Below, piece by piece: positions 17,437-61,171 of a stretch of 64,000 bases of DNA. Source of the stretch: Candidatus Sacchlamyda saccharinae (GTDB lineage: Bacteria; Chlamydiota; Chlamydiia; Chlamydiales; Rhabdochlamydiaceae). The translations under genes were made by a program, and so were the position numbers. How positions within the stretch are numbered: position 1 is the first letter of the stretch; each line of letters begins with the position of its first letter. The notes under the pieces are model-generated. The model was not told the origin of the DNA, did no database searches, and worked only from the letters and a program-made list of their open reading frames with translations. Location: positions 34,674-98,673 of the forward strand of contig JAUHQI010000002.1 of assembly GCA_030408505.1 (NCBI GenBank), given 5' to 3'.

Positions 17437-17470
17437 GAAGAAGATTTTTTAGGAATTTAAAATGTAATCA

Positions 17471-17603
17471 AGGGCCACTTAGGTTTTTTGCATGGCGATC
17501 CTTTAGTCGCCATGTCCAGCAACTCCATCGTCTTGAGCTATTCTGGTAATGAGAAAGCGGAGCGACCCGTAGGATCGCCCCGCAGAAAACCTATAGAGGC
17601 CCT
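17471..17603 (+). ncRNA. Mini copy of an unclassified structured intergenic element (family shared with 35166-35561)
   Basis: It shares termini (AGGGCC...GGCCCT), the loop ATCCTTTRGTC, GTCCAGC, CGTCTTGAGCTATT, AAGCGGAGC and GCAGAAAACCTAT with the 35.2-kb element. It has a 12-bp basal stem (17480-17491 / 17582-17593) with one G.U. It lies between convergent genes. Strand is inferred from G.U wobble counts. Confidence 0.4.
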
Positions 17604-17621
17604 GACATTAGGTCTCTTGAT

Positions 17622-18152
17622 TTAATTCTTGATTAGTTTGGCAATGACGAGGCCGCCGAGGAACCAACCGACCACAAGGTCAAATATTTCGAGGATAGCC
17701 CAGCCGGTTGGGAAGTGCCACCAGTTCCAAGCAGGCAGTGTTCCAAGAATTGCTACCAGTACACCTGCAAGGGTCACAAACCAAACACGTCCCCAGTACT
17801 TCATAGCTTTGGCACGAAGGAGTAGGTAGGTGATGATACCTGCACCGATGATTTGGGTAATAACACCACAAATCATGTTGCGTGTCATGTTGGTAAAATC
17901 AACTCCTCTTTGTACATTTACAAAGATGAATGGTGAAGTGGATTTTTCGGCACTCTCGACAGTATCCCAAGACGGAATGACATAGATGCCGTCTTCTGGG
18001 GCATATTTAGTGATGCATGAGGTCACTTCAGAGTCATCTGCAAAATGATGGATGCTTGCTTTGTGCATAGGCAGCAACATCCAAGAGATCATTACCCATA
18101 AAAAGACGATGAGTCCTCCTACAATCGAGCAACGAATGAGCGGTTTCCACAT
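17622..18152 (-). CDS. Hypothetical polytopic membrane protein
   Basis: 176-aa ORF with an N-terminal TM segment, a soluble segment, then three hydrophobic helices. No motif recognised. Confidence 0.5.
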   Translation of the reverse strand: MWKPLIRCSIVGGLIVFLWVMISWMLLPMHKASIHHFADDSEVTSCITKYAPEDGIYVIPSWDTVESAEKSTSPFIFVNVQRGVDFTNMTRNMICGVITQIIGAGIITYLLLRAKAMKYWGRVWFVTLAGVLVAILGTLPAWNWWHFPTGWAILEIFDLVVGWFLGGLVIAKLIKN

Positions 18153-34109: not shown

Positions 34110-34183
34110 AATAAAATTTTTATATATCTCTTCCGATGCTCTACTGTCAATTCAAATTGCTCTTTACAATCCTCTTGAGTATA

Positions 34184-35131
34184 ATGGTGAGAATGACTTG
34201 GCTTGTTGCTCTTCTCTATGCTACGTGGTCCAGCGTTTTTGCCTTTGGCAAAGGGATGCTGGAGATCTCTACCCCGATGTTTTTGACCGGGTCGCGCATG
34301 CTGCTGGCCGGAGCCCTGATGGTAGGGTACCTTCTTATCCGCAAGCGCTCCTCTTTTCGCTTAGACAAAAAGCAGTGGCTCTCGATTGGGTTTTTAGCCC
34401 TCTTCAGTATATTTCTCACCAACATATTAGAGTTCTGGGGACTGCAATACCTCTCCGCTGCCAAGACCTGCTTTATCTATAGCCTCTCTCCCTTTTTCTC
34501 CGCCCTCTTTTCTTATATCCACTTCAAAGAGAAAATGACTCGCGGCAAATGGATTGGGATGTTGATCGGATTTCTCGGGATGATTCCCGTATTCATGACA
34601 CAGACGGGATCCGAAGACCTGCTCAATGCTTTTAGCTTCTTTTCCTGGCCTACCCTCGCGATCATGGGAGCAGCCCTATTCTCCGTCTATGGTTGGGTGA
34701 TCCTGCGTCTTGTGGTCAAAGACAACGATGTCTCACCCGTAACGGCCAACGGAAGCAGCATGTTAGTTGGTGGCGCCATGGCCTTAGTTAGCTCCTTTTT
34801 CTTCGACACTTGGAACCCAATACCTGTTGCGGCTGGCAAGATGATGCCTTTTGCTATGGGGACACTTGGCATGACCCTCCTCTACAACGTCTTTTGCTAC
34901 AACCTCTACGGGATGATGCTCAAGCGCTACACAGCGACCTTCCTCTCCTTCATGGGACTACTGAGCCCCATCTTCGCCTCACTCACTGGTTGGCTCTTCT
35001 TAGGCGAGACCCTCTCATGGCAAATTTTCCTCTCAACAGCCATCGTCTCGATCGGCTTATTCATCGTCTACCGATCCGAGCTCAAACAGGGCTACATCAA
35101 AACCAACTCCCCCACCCCAATAAAAGAATAA
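34184..35131 (+). CDS. EamA/DMT-family transporter
   Basis: Ten predicted TM helices in two EamA-like halves. The start is taken at MVRMTW; the ORF is open from 34136. Confidence 0.8.
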   Translation: MVRMTWLVALLYATWSSVFAFGKGMLEISTPMFLTGSRMLLAGALMVGYLLIRKRSSFRLDKKQWLSIGFLALFSIFLTNILEFWGLQYLSAAKTCFIYSLSPFFSALFSYIHFKEKMTRGKWIGMLIGFLGMIPVFMTQTGSEDLLNAFSFFSWPTLAIMGAALFSVYGWVILRLVVKDNDVSPVTANGSSMLVGGAMALVSSFFFDTWNPIPVAAGKMMPFAMGTLGMTLLYNVFCYNLYGMMLKRYTATFLSFMGLLSPIFASLTGWLFLGETLSWQIFLSTAIVSIGLFIVYRSELKQGYIKTNSPTPIKE

Positions 35132-35165
35132 GAAAATATTTGGGAATGTTTTCAAGATGTTATGC

Positions 35166-35561
35166 TAGGGCCGCTATCCTTTCTTTTGCGAGATAATCCT
35201 TTGGTCATCTCGTCCAGCGCTAACGCGTCTTGAGCTATTTAGACTTCGGCTGCAAAAGCATTAAGGCGGGACTACGCCCACCTTCATGCCCTTTTGCAGG
35301 GCCAGATAAAAACAAGTAAGCGCTTATTTGCATTTGAACTGGCCCTGCGAGCGACTTGAAAGGGGGCGGAGTTCCCCTTGAAAGCTCGAGCAGCCGATGG
35401 CTATTATGGCAATGGAAAATTGCCCCGTTCGATCGGGCCATCAGTGTTTTACACGGGGCCCGGAGTAAGGGGTGATTTGCCGAAGTCAGAATAGCTCAAG
35501 TAAGCGGAGCTACCGGACGCAGCAACTGAAATTGCTGCGCAGAAAACCTATTGAGGCCCTA
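35166..35561 (+). ncRNA. Large unclassified structured intergenic element (candidate ncRNA or non-autonomous mobile element)
   Basis: GC-rich relative to its flanks. Terminal complementarity TAGGGCC/GGCCCTA. 22-nt long-range stem 35229-35250 / 35479-35500. Three-way junction at 35396-35442. 8-bp hairpin at 35518-35539. It shares 5' and 3' modules with 17471-17603. It lies between convergent genes and has no credible ORF. Confidence 0.45.
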
Positions 35562-35600
35562 CCAAAACAATCCGACTGGTCTTCACTCCTTCCCCCTACC

Positions 35601-36122
35601 CTAATGAATCATTTGGATTTGGTGGGGGAGGTTGTTGAAGATGGCTGTCCAGTGGGCTAGCTCGTTTTCATAGAGAGGTTTTGGGAGGTAAACAAAACAA
35701 CAAAAACCCTCAGACCCTCTTCCAAAATAGAGCTGAAAGTAGTAGCTGTCTAGGTTCTCCCACCTCTGCAAGAGCATCGGCGTGCGCCCATCTGCACCAG
35801 CATAGACAGTTGTTCTGTCGTGTTCGAGATAAAAAGGGGCATCAGCCTGAGTGAACCAATCGGCGTAATCTTCTAAATAGAAGGGATGATTGAACGTATC
35901 GCGGATAAAGACGAATTCCGCTTCAGGAAAAAGCCTGCTGCGATAGCGCAAACACGGACTCCCCTTATCAGTTTTCGATCCATCGAAAACAAAATCGGGA
36001 AGTAGGATCAAAAGCCCTTCTTCCAAACCTCCGATAATTTCAGAACCCCCAATAGATGCGCGGGGATAGTAGCCAAAAACTTGCGTAGCAAGGAGCAAGA
36101 ATAGTGCGACAAATTTTCTCAT
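35601..36122 (-). CDS. Hypothetical secreted protein (third gene of a three-gene array)
   Basis: 173 aa with signal peptide MRKFVALFLLLATQVFG. ATGA overlap with the upstream gene. Confidence 0.5.
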   Translation of the reverse strand: MRKFVALFLLLATQVFGYYPRASIGGSEIIGGLEEGLLILLPDFVFDGSKTDKGSPCLRYRSRLFPEAEFVFIRDTFNHPFYLEDYADWFTQADAPFYLEHDRTTVYAGADGRTPMLLQRWENLDSYYFQLYFGRGSEGFCCFVYLPKPLYENELAHWTAIFNNLPHQIQMIH

Positions 36123-36660: not shown

Positions 36661-37131
36661 TTAGGGGTTAAAAGAAATCGATTCTAGCATAGGCAGCAAA
36701 CCGTCTTCTTTACCATCATCTACTTTTGTGAGGCTAATGGTAAAACTGTAGTGGTCTTTCACAAAAAGATAATCGCAGAAGTATAGAGGGTGGCGGTACA
36801 TCTCGGCAATAGCAAGAATTCTCAATTGACACTTGGAGATTTCTAAAGGCCCCACACAAAAGCATTCGAATTTAAGACCTGTGCAGGTCATCTCCTCTTT
36901 TTCATCAGCCCCATTGATCAGAGCTTGATGGAAGTGCTCAGCGTGCGTTTTTTTGCAATCGTTCTCTTCAATTTCGATTGAGAGTTCATTCCCCTCTCCA
37001 TCTTCGTAAGAGTACCAACAATGGTCATCATATACACACTCGGCCATAGGCTCAAAGCGATCGGGTACTTCGAGCTGAAGGCCGCTACAGGGATCAAAAA
37101 AGGAAAAAAGAAAAAAGAGGAAACTTGTCAT
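36661..37131 (-). CDS. Hypothetical secreted Cys-rich protein (first gene of the array)
   Basis: The start is taken at MTSFLFFLFSFF (ATG at 37131), 9 nt from the tRNA-Ile 3' end. The longer ORF to 37176 would run into the tRNA. Confidence 0.45.
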   Translation of the reverse strand: MTSFLFFLFSFFDPCSGLQLEVPDRFEPMAECVYDDHCWYSYEDGEGNELSIEIEENDCKKTHAEHFHQALINGADEKEEMTCTGLKFECFCVGPLEISKCQLRILAIAEMYRHPLYFCDYLFVKDHYSFTISLTKVDDGKEDGLLPMLESISFNP

Positions 37132-37140
37132 ATAAGGAAA

Positions 37141-37214
37141 TGCGGTTACCAAGATTTGAACTTGGGACCTCAACATTATCAGTGTTGCGCTCTAACCAAC
37201 TGAGCTATAACCGC
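37141..37214 (-). tRNA. tRNA-Ile (anticodon GAU)
   Basis: The reverse complement reads GCGGTTATAGCTCAGTTGGTTAGAGCGCAACACTGATAATGTTGAGGTCCCAAGTTCAAATCTTGGTAACCGCA. It folds as a cloverleaf with anticodon loop CTGATAA. No encoded CCA. Confidence 0.93.
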
Positions 37215-37284
37215 GAGGAATGTGTAATTAAAAACAAAGGTCCCGTCGTAGGCACGAAAGATCGTACCTACACCGGGCTAGTCA

Positions 37285-37357
37285 TGGAGGCTAGGAGAGT
37301 CGAACTCCTGACCTTCTGAATGCAAATCAGACGCTCTACCAACTAAGCTAAGCCCCC
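37285..37357 (-). tRNA. tRNA-Ala (anticodon UGC)
   Basis: The reverse complement reads GGGGGCTTAGCTTAGTTGGTAGAGCGTCTGATTTGCATTCAGAAGGTCAGGAGTTCGACTCTCCTAGCCTCCA. The G3:U70 identity pair is present and the anticodon loop is TTTGCAT. Confidence 0.93.
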
Positions 37358-37449
37358 ACAAACCATGCAGCATATCGCTGCACCATTCCTTCCATGAGAA
37401 GGAAGAGAACAAGATACTAAATTTTGCTGTTTTCTGCAATCGGTTCTGA

Positions 37450-47888: not shown

Positions 47889-48180
47889 AGAACTTTTCTT
47901 TTGTTGGCAAAGGCAGATATTCGTAAGCACGGAAAAGCAAATTTTTCAATTCCTCAAGGAAAGGGTATCTTGGATTGAATTGATAAATTCTTGTCTTTCC
48001 CTGCAAGAAGCTAACTAATACACCTGCGTACTCTAATTTATCTAAGGTATTCTGGAAACCCGATAACGCCGAATCAAAGTTGTTCGACAATCTAGTAGCA
48101 TAACAAGATTCATTATTCAACAGGTAAAACAAAATCTTCTCAATATTCTTATTCCCGAAGAGCCGCTCGAGCATATCCAC
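47839..48180 (-). CDS. Winged-helix DNA-binding protein (putative antitoxin/autoregulator)
   Basis: 113 aa. KILFYLLNNESCYATRLSNNFDSALSGFQNTLDKLEYAGVLVSFLQGKTRIY fits an ArsR/MarR-like wHTH, and the tail is basic. It lies directly upstream of, and overlaps, the NTase gene. Confidence 0.6.
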   Translation of the reverse strand: MDMLERLFGNKNIEKILFYLLNNESCYATRLSNNFDSALSGFQNTLDKLEYAGVLVSFLQGKTRIYQFNPRYPFLEELKNLLFRAYEYLPLPTKEKFYEKKIRKRPRRKGKPI

Positions 48181-48182
48181 CC

Positions 48183-48276
48183 TAATTTATGGTTATATAA
48201 CCACATTATATGGTTAATACTAATTTCACGTCAACCACCATAATTTATGGTTGCATAACCACAAATCATGGTGGTT
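48183..48276. promoter_or_regulatory. Repeat/palindrome operator region in the divergent promoter upstream of the wHTH-NTase pair
   Basis: Two 23-nt direct repeats: TAATTTATGGTTATATAACCACA (48183-48205) and TAATTTATGGTTGCATAACCACA (48241-48263). Each contains a TGGTTnnnnAACCA palindrome. A 9-bp inverted repeat AACCACCAT/ATGGTGGTT (48233-48241 / 48268-48276) brackets the second one. Confidence 0.6.
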
Positions 48277-48313: not shown

Positions 48314-48823
48314 ATGAGCCGAATCTCCCCCAAACCCCTAGATCAGTACCCCTGGACCTTAAGACTTCTTTACTGGTACCAGAGAAGAAAATATGGGGAG
48401 CCCCTTTTGCCCTCTCTTCTTTGGGGCAGGATGCCAAAGCTCCTTATGCTGTTTTTTGGGTTTATCCGCTTTTTTGAGCGGAAAAAATCTCCATTAGATC
48501 CTGTATTGCGAAGCAGGGTCATGTTGCGCGTATCGGAAACCAACAAGTGCCCCTTTTGCATCGACATCAACTCTTCTGCGCTGCAACAAAAAAATGCCGG
48601 CGACCCCAGCGCACGCGAAGAATGCGCTCTCTTCTTTGCAGAAGCAGTGACCGATACCACAAAACAAGTAGATGATGCTTTGTTTGCCTCATTGAATGAA
48701 CACTTTTCTGAGGAAGAAATTGCAGAGCTCGCCGCTCTCATAGCTTTTCAAAACATGTCGAGCAAATTCAACTCTGCTCTGAACGTAGAGCCCCATGGGT
48801 TTTGCAAAATAAATAGGCAATAG
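48314..48823 (+). CDS. Carboxymuconolactone decarboxylase/AhpD-like family protein
   Basis: 169 aa. The CPFC (CxxC) motif sits in an SETNKCPFCIDINS context typical of the AhpD-like core domain. Confidence 0.65.
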   Translation: MSRISPKPLDQYPWTLRLLYWYQRRKYGEPLLPSLLWGRMPKLLMLFFGFIRFFERKKSPLDPVLRSRVMLRVSETNKCPFCIDINSSALQQKNAGDPSAREECALFFAEAVTDTTKQVDDALFASLNEHFSEEEIAELAALIAFQNMSSKFNSALNVEPHGFCKINRQ

Positions 48824-60840: not shown

Positions 60841-60845
60841 CTCAT

Positions 60846-60918
60846 GCTGGTGTAGCTCAATTGGTAGAGCACCCGACTTGTAATCGGACGGTTGAGGGTT
60901 CAATTCCTTTCGCCAGCA
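60846..60918 (+). tRNA. tRNA-Thr (anticodon UGU)
   Basis: GCTGGTGTAGCTCAATTGGTAGAGCACCCGACTTGTAATCGGACGGTTGAGGGTTCAATTCCTTTCGCCAGCA folds as a cloverleaf with anticodon loop CTTGTAA. Confidence 0.9.
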
Positions 60919-60925
60919 TTCTTCT

Positions 60926-61086
60926 AAACTCAACTTGCCCCTTATCTTTTTCAAGGGCGTAAGCGAGCTGAAGAGATACAAGTTTTGCGAGGAAGGGAAG
61001 GTGTAAAAACACCTTTCCAACGAGGAAACCGCCGTAGATCTTTCGCGCAGATAGCCCATGGAAAAGAGAGGGGGCAAGTTGAGTTT
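60926..61086 (+). other. Long-range stem (16 bp perfect, extendable to ~26 bp) enclosing ~110 nt in the tRNA-Thr/tRNA-Tyr spacer
   Basis: AAACTCAACTTGCCCC (60926-60941) is the exact reverse complement of GGGGCAAGTTGAGTTT (61071-61086). Pairing continues inward (TTATCTTTTT / GAAAAGAGAG) with one mismatch and U.G pairs. There is an internal hairpin GGAAGGTGT-AAAA-ACACCTTTCC. Confidence 0.6.
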
Positions 61087-61089
61087 TTA

Positions 61090-61171
61090 GGGGGTGTCGC
61101 ATAGCGGCAATTGCAAGGGACTGTAAATCCCTCGACTTCGGTCTCCGTTGGTTCGAGTCCAACCGCCCCCA
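61090..61171 (+). tRNA. tRNA-Tyr (anticodon GUA, long variable arm)
   Basis: GGGGGTGTCGCATAGCGGCAATTGCAAGGGACTGTAAATCCCTCGACTTCGGTCTCCGTTGGTTCGAGTCCAACCGCCCCCA. Anticodon loop CTGTAAA and a 14-nt variable arm hairpin. Confidence 0.9.

Follow-up and report, generated by a model that had tools for sequence, protein, structure and literature searches.

Among bacterial repeats, the closest described counterparts of the element analyzed here are the Rickettsia palindromic elements (RPE), the ERIC/IRU sequences, the Correia/NEMIS elements of Neisseria, and the pneumococcal BOX elements, all of which are likewise non-coding and dispersed and differ in presence or absence between relatives. Our element occupies positions 35166–35561 of a 64,000-nucleotide stretch of Candidatus Sacchlamyda saccharinae (contig JAUHQI010000002.1, positions 34,674 to 98,673), which we refer to as the window. 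It is probably one decayed copy of a dispersed, non-coding, insertion-polymorphic foldback repeat family of Simkaniaceae that resembles the miniature inverted-repeat transposable elements (MITEs). It shares with the described families an imperfect long palindrome, which forms one hairpin when transcribed, and an intergenic position near gene ends. Its versions differ by internal blocks, as in ERIC, and by module content, as in BOX A/B/C, and its host belongs to an obligate intracellular lineage, as in RPE.

Unlike these families, the Simkaniaceae element is far larger when intact (about 480 nt against 100–170 nt), carries three covarying hairpins per half, and seems to be present in low copy number. 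Correia elements duplicate TA, whereas no duplication of TA or of any other target accompanies the Simkaniaceae element. We know of no sequence similarity between it and RPE, ERIC, Correia, or BOX. The family is absent from Rfam 15 and previously unlisted, and the literature searched on chlamydial or Simkaniaceae repeats, MITEs, and intron targets yielded no prior description of it. It adds a repeat family to the environmental chlamydiae (Simkaniaceae), a group whose mobile DNA has been catalogued poorly so far. Both the size and the modularity of the family are unusual, and when intact the element is a nearly perfect palindrome of 480 nt, of a kind that many bacteria would not tolerate.

Insertion, architecture and dispersal

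The element measures 396 nt and sits between the 3' ends of two convergent genes, an EamA-family gene on the plus strand (34136–35131; Pfam EamA, E 2.5e-39) and a gene for a 173-aa protein on the minus strand (35601–36122). The EamA protein is 100% identical to MDN3505723.1 from a Simkaniaceae metagenome-assembled genome (MAG) of Ca. Sacchlamyda saccharinae, and its homologues carry the NCBI name of chlamydial SAM/SAH transporters. We compared ten loci from eight relatives, all of which have the gene order Mdh, EamA, then, convergent to EamA, genes for 174, 188, and 167 aa, and an epimerase. The EamA and 174-aa genes overlap by 11 nt at the six loci of the four proteins in the 90% EamA cluster (L002, L011–L015), and in relatives at 78–80% identity they are separated by 80 nt (L003 and L004) or 97 nt (L005 and L006). 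The corresponding gap in the window is 469 nt, with the C-terminus of the 173-aa protein (..QIQMIH*) still recognizable beside the element. Because the relatives have an overlap or 80–97 nt where the window has 469 nt, 35166–35561 is a lineage-specific insertion rather than a conserved RNA gene. None of the ten loci from the eight relatives carries the element at this site, and the genes around the element (EamA, Mdh, and those for small conserved proteins) are also present in the relatives that do not have it.

The repeating unit of the family was resolved by BLAST, MAFFT, nhmmer, and a covariance model, R1. Over its length of about 220 nt it contains, in order, hairpin X (about 50 nt) and the core hairpin (about 100 nt), then a linker whose last letters are CCGGAC, hairpin V, which is variable, and finally a tail with the consensus GCA(G/A)AAAACCTATnGAGGCCC and the conserved sequence GCAGAAAACCTATnGAGGCCC. 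An intact element of about 480 nt consists of two such units placed head to head around a short spacer and can fold as a rod, or each unit can fold by itself. In the metagenome locus L022 both units are full (R1 200 and 145 bits), and the 482 nt fold to a near-perfect rod of -311.9 kcal/mol (z -23). A single unit without a partner at L008 also folds well (z -6.1).

The window copy is composed of a core-less inverted left unit, a spacer hairpin, and a complete right unit on the plus strand. Its left arm is an inverted 3' arm of the family without a core (35166–35250, minus strand; nhmmer arm profile 35249–35166, E 8e-16), divided into the tail (35166–35188), hairpin V (35189–35212), and the linker with the CTTGAGCTATT block (35213–35250). 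Hairpin X of this unit (35250–35299, minus strand) is, as reverse complement, 79–80% identical to X of L009 and L008 over 54–65 nt; together with X, the left inverted unit is matched by R1 at 35164–35298 on the minus strand (64.8 bits, E 5e-19). The spacer hairpin H (35300–35344; GGCCAG...CTGGCC, palindromic down to TAAGCGCTTA) is the center of symmetry, and in L009 and L022 the spacer has another sequence and another length. The right unit (35345–35563 by R1, 223.6 bits; 35345–35561 as laid out here) starts with its own hairpin X (35345–35393), which lies within the R1 match, followed by the core hairpin of the consensus fold (35394–35498, about 100 nt), the linker AGTAAGCGGAGCTACCGGA ending in the CCGGAC that the alignments show to be conserved (35499–35517), and hairpin V (35518–35539), whose sequence differs in every copy and which always pairs. 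The plus-strand unit is closed by 35540–35569, that is, the conserved tail CAGAAAACCTATTGAGGCCCTA (35540–35561) with a possible outer extension CCAAAACA (35562–35569).

Terminal inverted repeats are present, as the arms match one profile on opposite strands. On the left, a possible outer extension TGTTATGC (35158–35165) faces the GCAAAACA-like 35562–35569, and TGTTATGCTAGGGCC (35158–35172) agrees at 13 of 15 positions with the reverse complement of 35555–35569 (TGTTTTGGTAGGGCC). Judged from these letters, the terminal inverted repeat probably reaches 8 nt further on each side (TGTT..AACA), and the element would then span 35158–35569. Five of the eight listed copy ends begin with TGT, and the termini of L022 are inverted over more than 25 nt. 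Several features named in a preliminary description of this stretch were recovered within this layout: the complementary ends TAGGGCC (35166–35172) and GGCCCTA (35555–35561), a long-range 22-nt stem joining 35229–35250 to 35479–35500 (complementary at 20 of 22 positions), and hairpins at about 35250–35299, at about 35300–35344, and, with 8 perfect base pairs, at 35518–35539.

A shorter homologue that the preliminary description had placed at 17471–17603 of the window is real, with profile matches on both strands, and has in common with the long copy the 3' tail as well as AAGCGGAGC and the block CGTCTTGAGCTATT. This copy (17463–17607) lies between a convergent MiaB-like gene and a 176-aa gene and consists of two inverted arms, minus at 17470–17546 (nhmmer E 1e-15) and plus at 17551–17604 (E 5e-9), without X or core hairpins, so that only one of the four arms in the window retains a core. 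The region 17465–17610 folds to -60.9 kcal/mol (z -7.1). The radical-SAM gene of L014, considered as an orthologue of the gene beside the short copy, is 32–42% identical and was set aside as a paralogue, so that it provides no comparison for the site of the short copy. As a separate observation, the minus strand of the short copy holds a 12-bp GC-rich hairpin followed by TTTCTCATTA (17557–17583), which could terminate the 176-aa gene (17622–18152); with one terminator-like site found against 0.6 expected, it is no evidence by itself.

Outside the window, the family was traced with a pattern derived from the tail, which matches both window copies with 0 matches expected by chance. Four real homologues, L007–L010, were identified in metagenomes, whereas the genome collection returned only a chance match inside a Cytophagales coding region, and scans of viral contigs with four patterns gave no match. 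The copies lie in unrelated surroundings: among fmt, lpxA, fabZ, and lpxC in L009, L016, and L017, among small genes upstream of rplC in L007, next to a SulP gene in L008, next to a CitMHS gene in L010, and between convergent aminotransferase and transketolase genes in L022. L007 and L009 represent opposite sides of the same locus, all of which is spanned by L016 (Fmt 97% identical), so the family is found at the two window loci and in four other metagenome gene contexts. At least the two host loci tested are Simkaniaceae-like, and the proteins most similar to the L009 Fmt come from Simkaniaceae and Chlamydiae. The fmt site is again polymorphic, filled in L009 and L016 and empty in L018–L021 (Fmt 80% and 72% identical; gap 68–75 nt). 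Searches of the window and of about 190 kb of the relatives' DNA with the nhmmer profile and the covariance model detected neither further copies nor further ends of the family.

Conserved fold of the unit and possible selection on RNA

The structure of the element is far from chance. The minimum free energy of 35166–35561 is -183.9 kcal/mol on the plus strand, compared with -129.2 +/- 5.9 for dinucleotide shuffles (z -9.3; 0 of 100 shuffles as good), and -177.4 kcal/mol (z -8.7) on the minus strand. The dense structure noticed at the outset is thereby substantiated, while the label GC-rich applies only mildly: the G+C content of 51.8% is above the window mean of 45.3% (sd 3.4) and within the top 3% of 396-nt windows. 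That no known RNA class fits was confirmed. Rfam 15 at gathering score reported four tRNAs and nothing else in the whole window, the best match within 35050–35700 at E up to 10 was a snoRNA model at E 0.69, and ARAGORN found no tmRNA. Resemblances to tmRNA, RNase P, and a T-loop (GGCCCTACCA, GTTCGAT) are borne out by no model.

We also considered whether the region might be a decayed protein-coding gene or a chance palindrome, an explanation to which we assign next to no probability and which is effectively refuted. Short open reading frames (ORFs) of 38–68 aa inside the element, and nothing more, speak for it, yet none has a Pfam match, in line with the earlier statement that no credible ORF is present, and no protein-coding remnant was found. 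The translated frame of the L009 unit, used as bait for spurious ORFs, matched nothing among 5.8 billion proteins. An exhaustive search of 1.84 billion representatives with the window frame yielded as sole genuine matches two spurious ORFs spanning other element copies, P0246 and P0247, the latter leading to L022; P0244 and P0245 from the same search are unrelated repeat proteins. Chance is excluded by z-scores from -9 to -23 together with compensatory changes in the homologues.

These changes were counted in A7, an alignment of seven near-complete units that was fitted to the model and therefore favors structure: 92.1% of its pair cells are standard, while shuffles give 80.8 +/- 1.1 and none of 500 is as high, and 24 of 63 pairs changed on both sides, compared with 11.7 in shuffles (0 of 500). 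As a control, sliding the partners by 1–3 columns reduced pairing to 31–49%; despite the model-fitted alignment, these slid controls and a plain reading of the sequences agree with the unit structure, and ten matches including partial ones give the same covariation picture. Changes on both sides were found in 7 of 14 pairs of the X helices (2–3) and in 7 of 8 pairs of hairpin V (helix 8; 94% of cells paired), and the core helices 4–7 are 91–100% paired, with 10 pairs changed on both sides. Pairing is thus conserved among the homologues. In the core, GGCUAUUAUGGC pairs with GCC..AGAAUAGCU and AAAUUGCCCC with GGGGUGAUUU, and the apex is GUGU-UUU-ACAC; in homologues GGCUAUU pairs with AGAAUAGCU, and in a second type of core AAAUCGGUCC and GGAUCCGAUUU take the place of the AAAUUGCCCC and GGGGUGAUUU pairing. 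The three-way junction proposed earlier for 35396–35442 lies inside the core hairpin and can be drawn, but belongs neither to the minimum-energy fold nor to the conserved one, and its closing stem GATGGC/GCCATC and its arm GGCAAT/ATTGCC are absent from L008 and L010.

Sequence conservation varies along the unit. When the units of the window and of L009 are compared, identity is 58% in X, 85% in the core, 53% in the linker, 73% in V, and 95% in the tail, the last value partly reflecting that L009 was found by the tail pattern. The tail is nevertheless kept in L022, a copy that was not found through it. The unit might accordingly be a functional structured RNA with a regulatory, protein-binding, or catalytic role, carried on a foldback or duplicated as one, in which the core hairpin and tail would be under selection for RNA function and the right unit of the window would be the active part. 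We regard this as unlikely, even though the strong covariation in X, core, and V, the independently recovered tail of L022, the good fold of the partnerless L008 unit, and the 85% identity of the core between hosts whose Fmt proteins differ by about 28%, with neighboring blocks at 53–58%, would all fit. The only group II intron in the family (see below) is also oriented like its host unit, and the unit strand folds slightly better than its complement: the consensus energy is -63.1 against -56.4, and the single-unit energies are -84.0/-74.5, -90.8/-88.5, -97.7/-95.0, and -47.4/-42.6.

Several observations count against such a function. The same loci are empty in relatives, and copies are freely truncated, three of the four window arms having lost the core. 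Pairing can also persist without any RNA function, as template-switch repair, by quasipalindrome correction, keeps local palindromes paired. No conserved sigma-70-like site was found upstream of the window copies or L008, and no U-tract terminator after the 3' ends of units; a promoter proposed in the AT-rich 5' flank (TTGGGA..TGTTATGCT) was rejected, its spacing varying between copies and no sigma-70-like site being conserved. Nor are the non-canonical pairs a robust guide to the strand. The preliminary description had argued from G.U pairs for a plus-strand RNA, and 39 G.U against 7 A.C cells on the unit strand seemed to agree, but the reverse-complement alignment produces a different consensus structure that is equally rich in G.U pairs (19 G.U against 4 A.C), which shows the test to be biased by the prediction itself, and we discarded it.

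The suggestion of a novel non-coding RNA, understood as a free-standing conserved RNA gene, is not supported by these comparisons. The locus is empty in every close relative examined, the 396 nt do not form one RNA but join a partial, inverted unit through a spacer to a full one, no conserved promoter or terminator flanks the copies, and at the fmt locus relatives that are 97% identical differ in their element by the loss of a segment, by a foreign repeat nested in it, and by the presence of a group II intron. An intergenic structure of 400 nt that folds at z -9, is negative in Rfam, and covaries is here probably selfish foldback DNA and not a new housekeeping RNA, which removes a false lead. 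A related proposal is that the ~220-nt unit, with its X, core, and V hairpins and an invariant 21-nt tail, represents a new class of mobile structured RNA, whose fold and core would be under selection at the RNA level for binding or guiding its enzyme or for self-processing, with foldback DNA as the vehicle; we consider it rather improbable. If the uneven conservation reflects function, the unit would be worth testing as RNA.

Probable mobility and its possible mechanisms

The copies of the family are dispersed to unrelated loci, polymorphic in their insertion, built as foldbacks with a conserved unit fold, and subject to rapid structural decay. Since they are dispersed, differ in their insertion between relatives, and end in inverted termini, we read them as non-autonomous mobile elements, one of the possibilities that the preliminary description had raised. 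The element would move, or would once have moved, as DNA, and an enzyme supplied in trans might recognize the conserved inverted termini (TGT..AGGGGCC..TATAGGTTTTCTGC). It would land in intergenic DNA, mostly at gene 3' ends, and might then be co-transcribed into 3' untranslated regions as a very stable hairpin. Deletions and conversions between the many internal inverted repeats could account for its decay, and a class-C-like group II intron as well as other small repeats may be drawn to its stem-loops.

Some of our results weigh against a MITE-like element. The four copies that retain both ends show no target-site duplication: there is no direct repeat of at least 2 nt at the long and short window copies or at L016, and L022 has just AT, inside a longer inverted match. 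The duplications may have been lost by decay, the copies being old. A TA duplication of the IS630 or Correia kind was rejected as a family rule, since it could apply at most to the long window copy. No autonomous parent or transposase turned up, although no search aimed at one was made. Ordinary MITEs conserve their terminal repeats only, whereas here three internal hairpins covary, and the contrast between the core and its less conserved neighbors could reflect selection at the sequence level on an RNA or a protein-binding site. The unit strand also has a slightly better predicted fold than its complement in four of four units. With 5–6 independent loci known, two of them in this 64-kb window, the copy number may also be low for a MITE. 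The lack of target duplications, the lack of a known parent, and the uneven conservation leave some probability to a functional RNA, as discussed above, and to mobilization through single-stranded DNA or through RNA.

Among systems that use hairpins of single-stranded DNA, REPIN/BIME sequences offer a close parallel: they replicate as inverted doublets separated by a short spacer and decay to singlets, they do not duplicate their target, and the hairpin-forming single strand is the likely substrate. REP units differ in being 20–40 nt long with a GTAG or CGTC tag, while the units here are about 220 nt long with AGGGGCC termini and no tag. The palindrome-associated transposable elements (PATE) and the omega-RNAs of TnpB/IscB (HEARO) are similar as structured non-coding sequences with a subterminal hairpin, a conserved terminal sequence, and no target duplication. 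Unlike them, our element ends in inverted repeats and has no tnpA, tnpB, or iscB nearby, and in contrast to omega-RNAs it has no evident variable guide-like segment at a constant border. The HEARO and IS605-orfB models of Rfam did not match the window element, and the left flanks of the copies share no short word at a fixed distance, as a PATE-type insertion word would be.

By analogy, the family might be a single-stranded DNA hairpin element, of the REPIN/BIME kind or a PATE derived from IS200/IS605, in which a HUH (Y1) transposase would read hairpin V and the tail on one strand. Mobilization by such an enzyme would explain the absence of target-site duplications at every complete copy, and the subterminal hairpin, 21–22 nt from the end and flanked by conserved GGAC and GCAGAAAACC, as well as the REPIN-like doublet of inverted units, would suit it. 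The same stem-loops attract a class-C-like intron, and such introns target DNA stem-loops (PMC1702495). Nevertheless, the ends are true inverted repeats, unlike the same-strand, non-inverted ends of IS200/IS605, and the sequence of V is wholly different among the four arms of one genome, which is hard to reconcile with sequence-specific recognition. There is no GTAG or CGTC tag, and neither a RAYT-like gene nor TnpA occurs among the annotated neighbors of any copy. We therefore consider this origin improbable. The idea of an orphan guide-RNA relic, also put forward in the preliminary description, found no support, as no TnpB, IscB, or reverse transcriptase gene is adjacent.

An RNA-mediated element could be envisaged as well, in which a reverse transcriptase, for example of a group II intron, would prime at the 3' tail and snap-back second-strand synthesis would generate the inverted dimers. 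The 3' end is constant and the 5' extent varies (arms only, an arm plus X, or a full unit), several 3' flanks are A-rich, and a group II intron resides in the same genomes. However, the left arms bear the same terminus, inverted, at every complete copy, which fits terminal inverted repeats better than 5' truncation. The A-rich flanks are inconsistent (L022 left, L008), the similarity of flanks is not significant after multiple testing, and no reverse transcriptase gene is adjacent to any copy. This mechanism appears very doubtful to us.

The flank similarity concerns AT-rich left flanks (window 35139–35165 and 17447–17469; L008 249–282) that share TTTrGGAAT and TTTTCAAGAT / TTTAAAAT. These words stand at a variable distance from AGGGCC. 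Each pair gives p of about 0.02 in the shuffle test, which loses significance once multiple testing is taken into account, and we rejected the shared 5'-flank words such as TTTTCAAGAT as a signal.

Guests, decay and other features of the window

The element at the fmt locus illustrates how rapidly copies change. A group II intron lies in the core of one of its units (L009 1–112, minus strand; L007 4536–4654, minus strand), inserted 7 nt after a small core hairpin and in the orientation of the host unit. Its 5' end, GTGCGAC, follows ..GCACGGGTTGC, and RF00029, whose gathering score is 40, matches its domains V–VI with 45.8 bits. In domain V the triad is CGC, as in class C introns, from which we take the intron to be class-C-like. 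We had considered L007 and L009 as two independent intron insertions, but synteny with L016 and L018 shows one locus. The intron site is uninterrupted in L010. L016 has no intron and has lost most of that unit (CCAATGGCTGTTATGGCAA|CTGAAG..), and a 164-nt unrelated inverted-repeat element (L016 7953–8116; termini GAGGCTGTGAAAAAATA / TATTTTTTCACAGCCTC) is nested in its other arm and absent from the near-identical L009.

Class C introns usually follow inverted repeats, whether terminator-like or of another kind, which serve as DNA stem-loop targets (PMC1702495), and for this reason we regard the intron as a guest that provides no clue to the nature of the element. The Simkaniaceae element resembles known stem-loop targets, such as intrinsic terminators and integron attC sites, in that one copy likewise hosts a group II intron, and differs from them in having no attC R/L boxes and no U-tract and in lying outside any cassette array. 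The boxes of attC (R''/L''...L'/R', RYYYAAC...GTTRRRY) are not found, the termini reading AGGGGCC/GGCCCCT, and copies are single and lie between housekeeping genes. The intron is secondary, confined to one locus, and absent from the window. The RF00029 and group-II-D1D4 models do not match the window element; the guest intron in L007 and L009, which these models recover, is the sole Rfam match at the homologous loci. The notion of an ORF-less intron fragment is not supported, as no group II domain was detected in the window element and its sole link to introns is the class-C-like intron inserted into one copy elsewhere.

The family offers insertion sites to a class-C-like group II intron and to another small repeat, and its copies are useful as markers of recent genome change between near-identical strains. 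They likely cause assembly breaks in MAGs: the contigs of L007, L009, and L010 end inside a copy or its guest intron, L007 and L009 inside the intron, and contig L017 ends about 125 nt past fmt, where the element lies. As a side observation at this locus, 84 extra nucleotides lie past the element end in L007 (4353–4436, minus strand), with the direct repeat GAGGCCCC at their bounds and TAAGAG/CTCTTA at their ends. They are absent from L016 and may be another small insertion with an 8-bp duplication.

Several other features of the window deserve mention. A 79-nt direct repeat (3229–3307 and 4018–4096) is 92% identical between its copies, which are 789 nt apart, the second overlapping the 3' end of a 912-aa ORF (4018–6756, minus strand). 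The genes for tRNA-Ile(GAT) (37141–37214) and tRNA-Ala(TGC) (37284–37358) are adjacent on the minus strand, with no rRNA gene in the window; this pair is usually found in the 16S–23S spacer. Because the 171-aa ORF at 36661–37176 overlaps tRNA-Ile, its start is probably miscalled. A 33-nt inverted repeat (60926–60958 / 61054–61086, 88% complementary) takes up most of the spacer from tRNA-Thr (60845–60919) to tRNA-Tyr (61090–61171). Finally, the intergenic region 48174–48272, upstream of the ORF at 48314–48823, contains an AT-rich 38-nt repeat twice, 58 nt apart, overlapping a 27-nt palindrome (TTATATAACCACA...), and by its letters looks like an operator or an origin.

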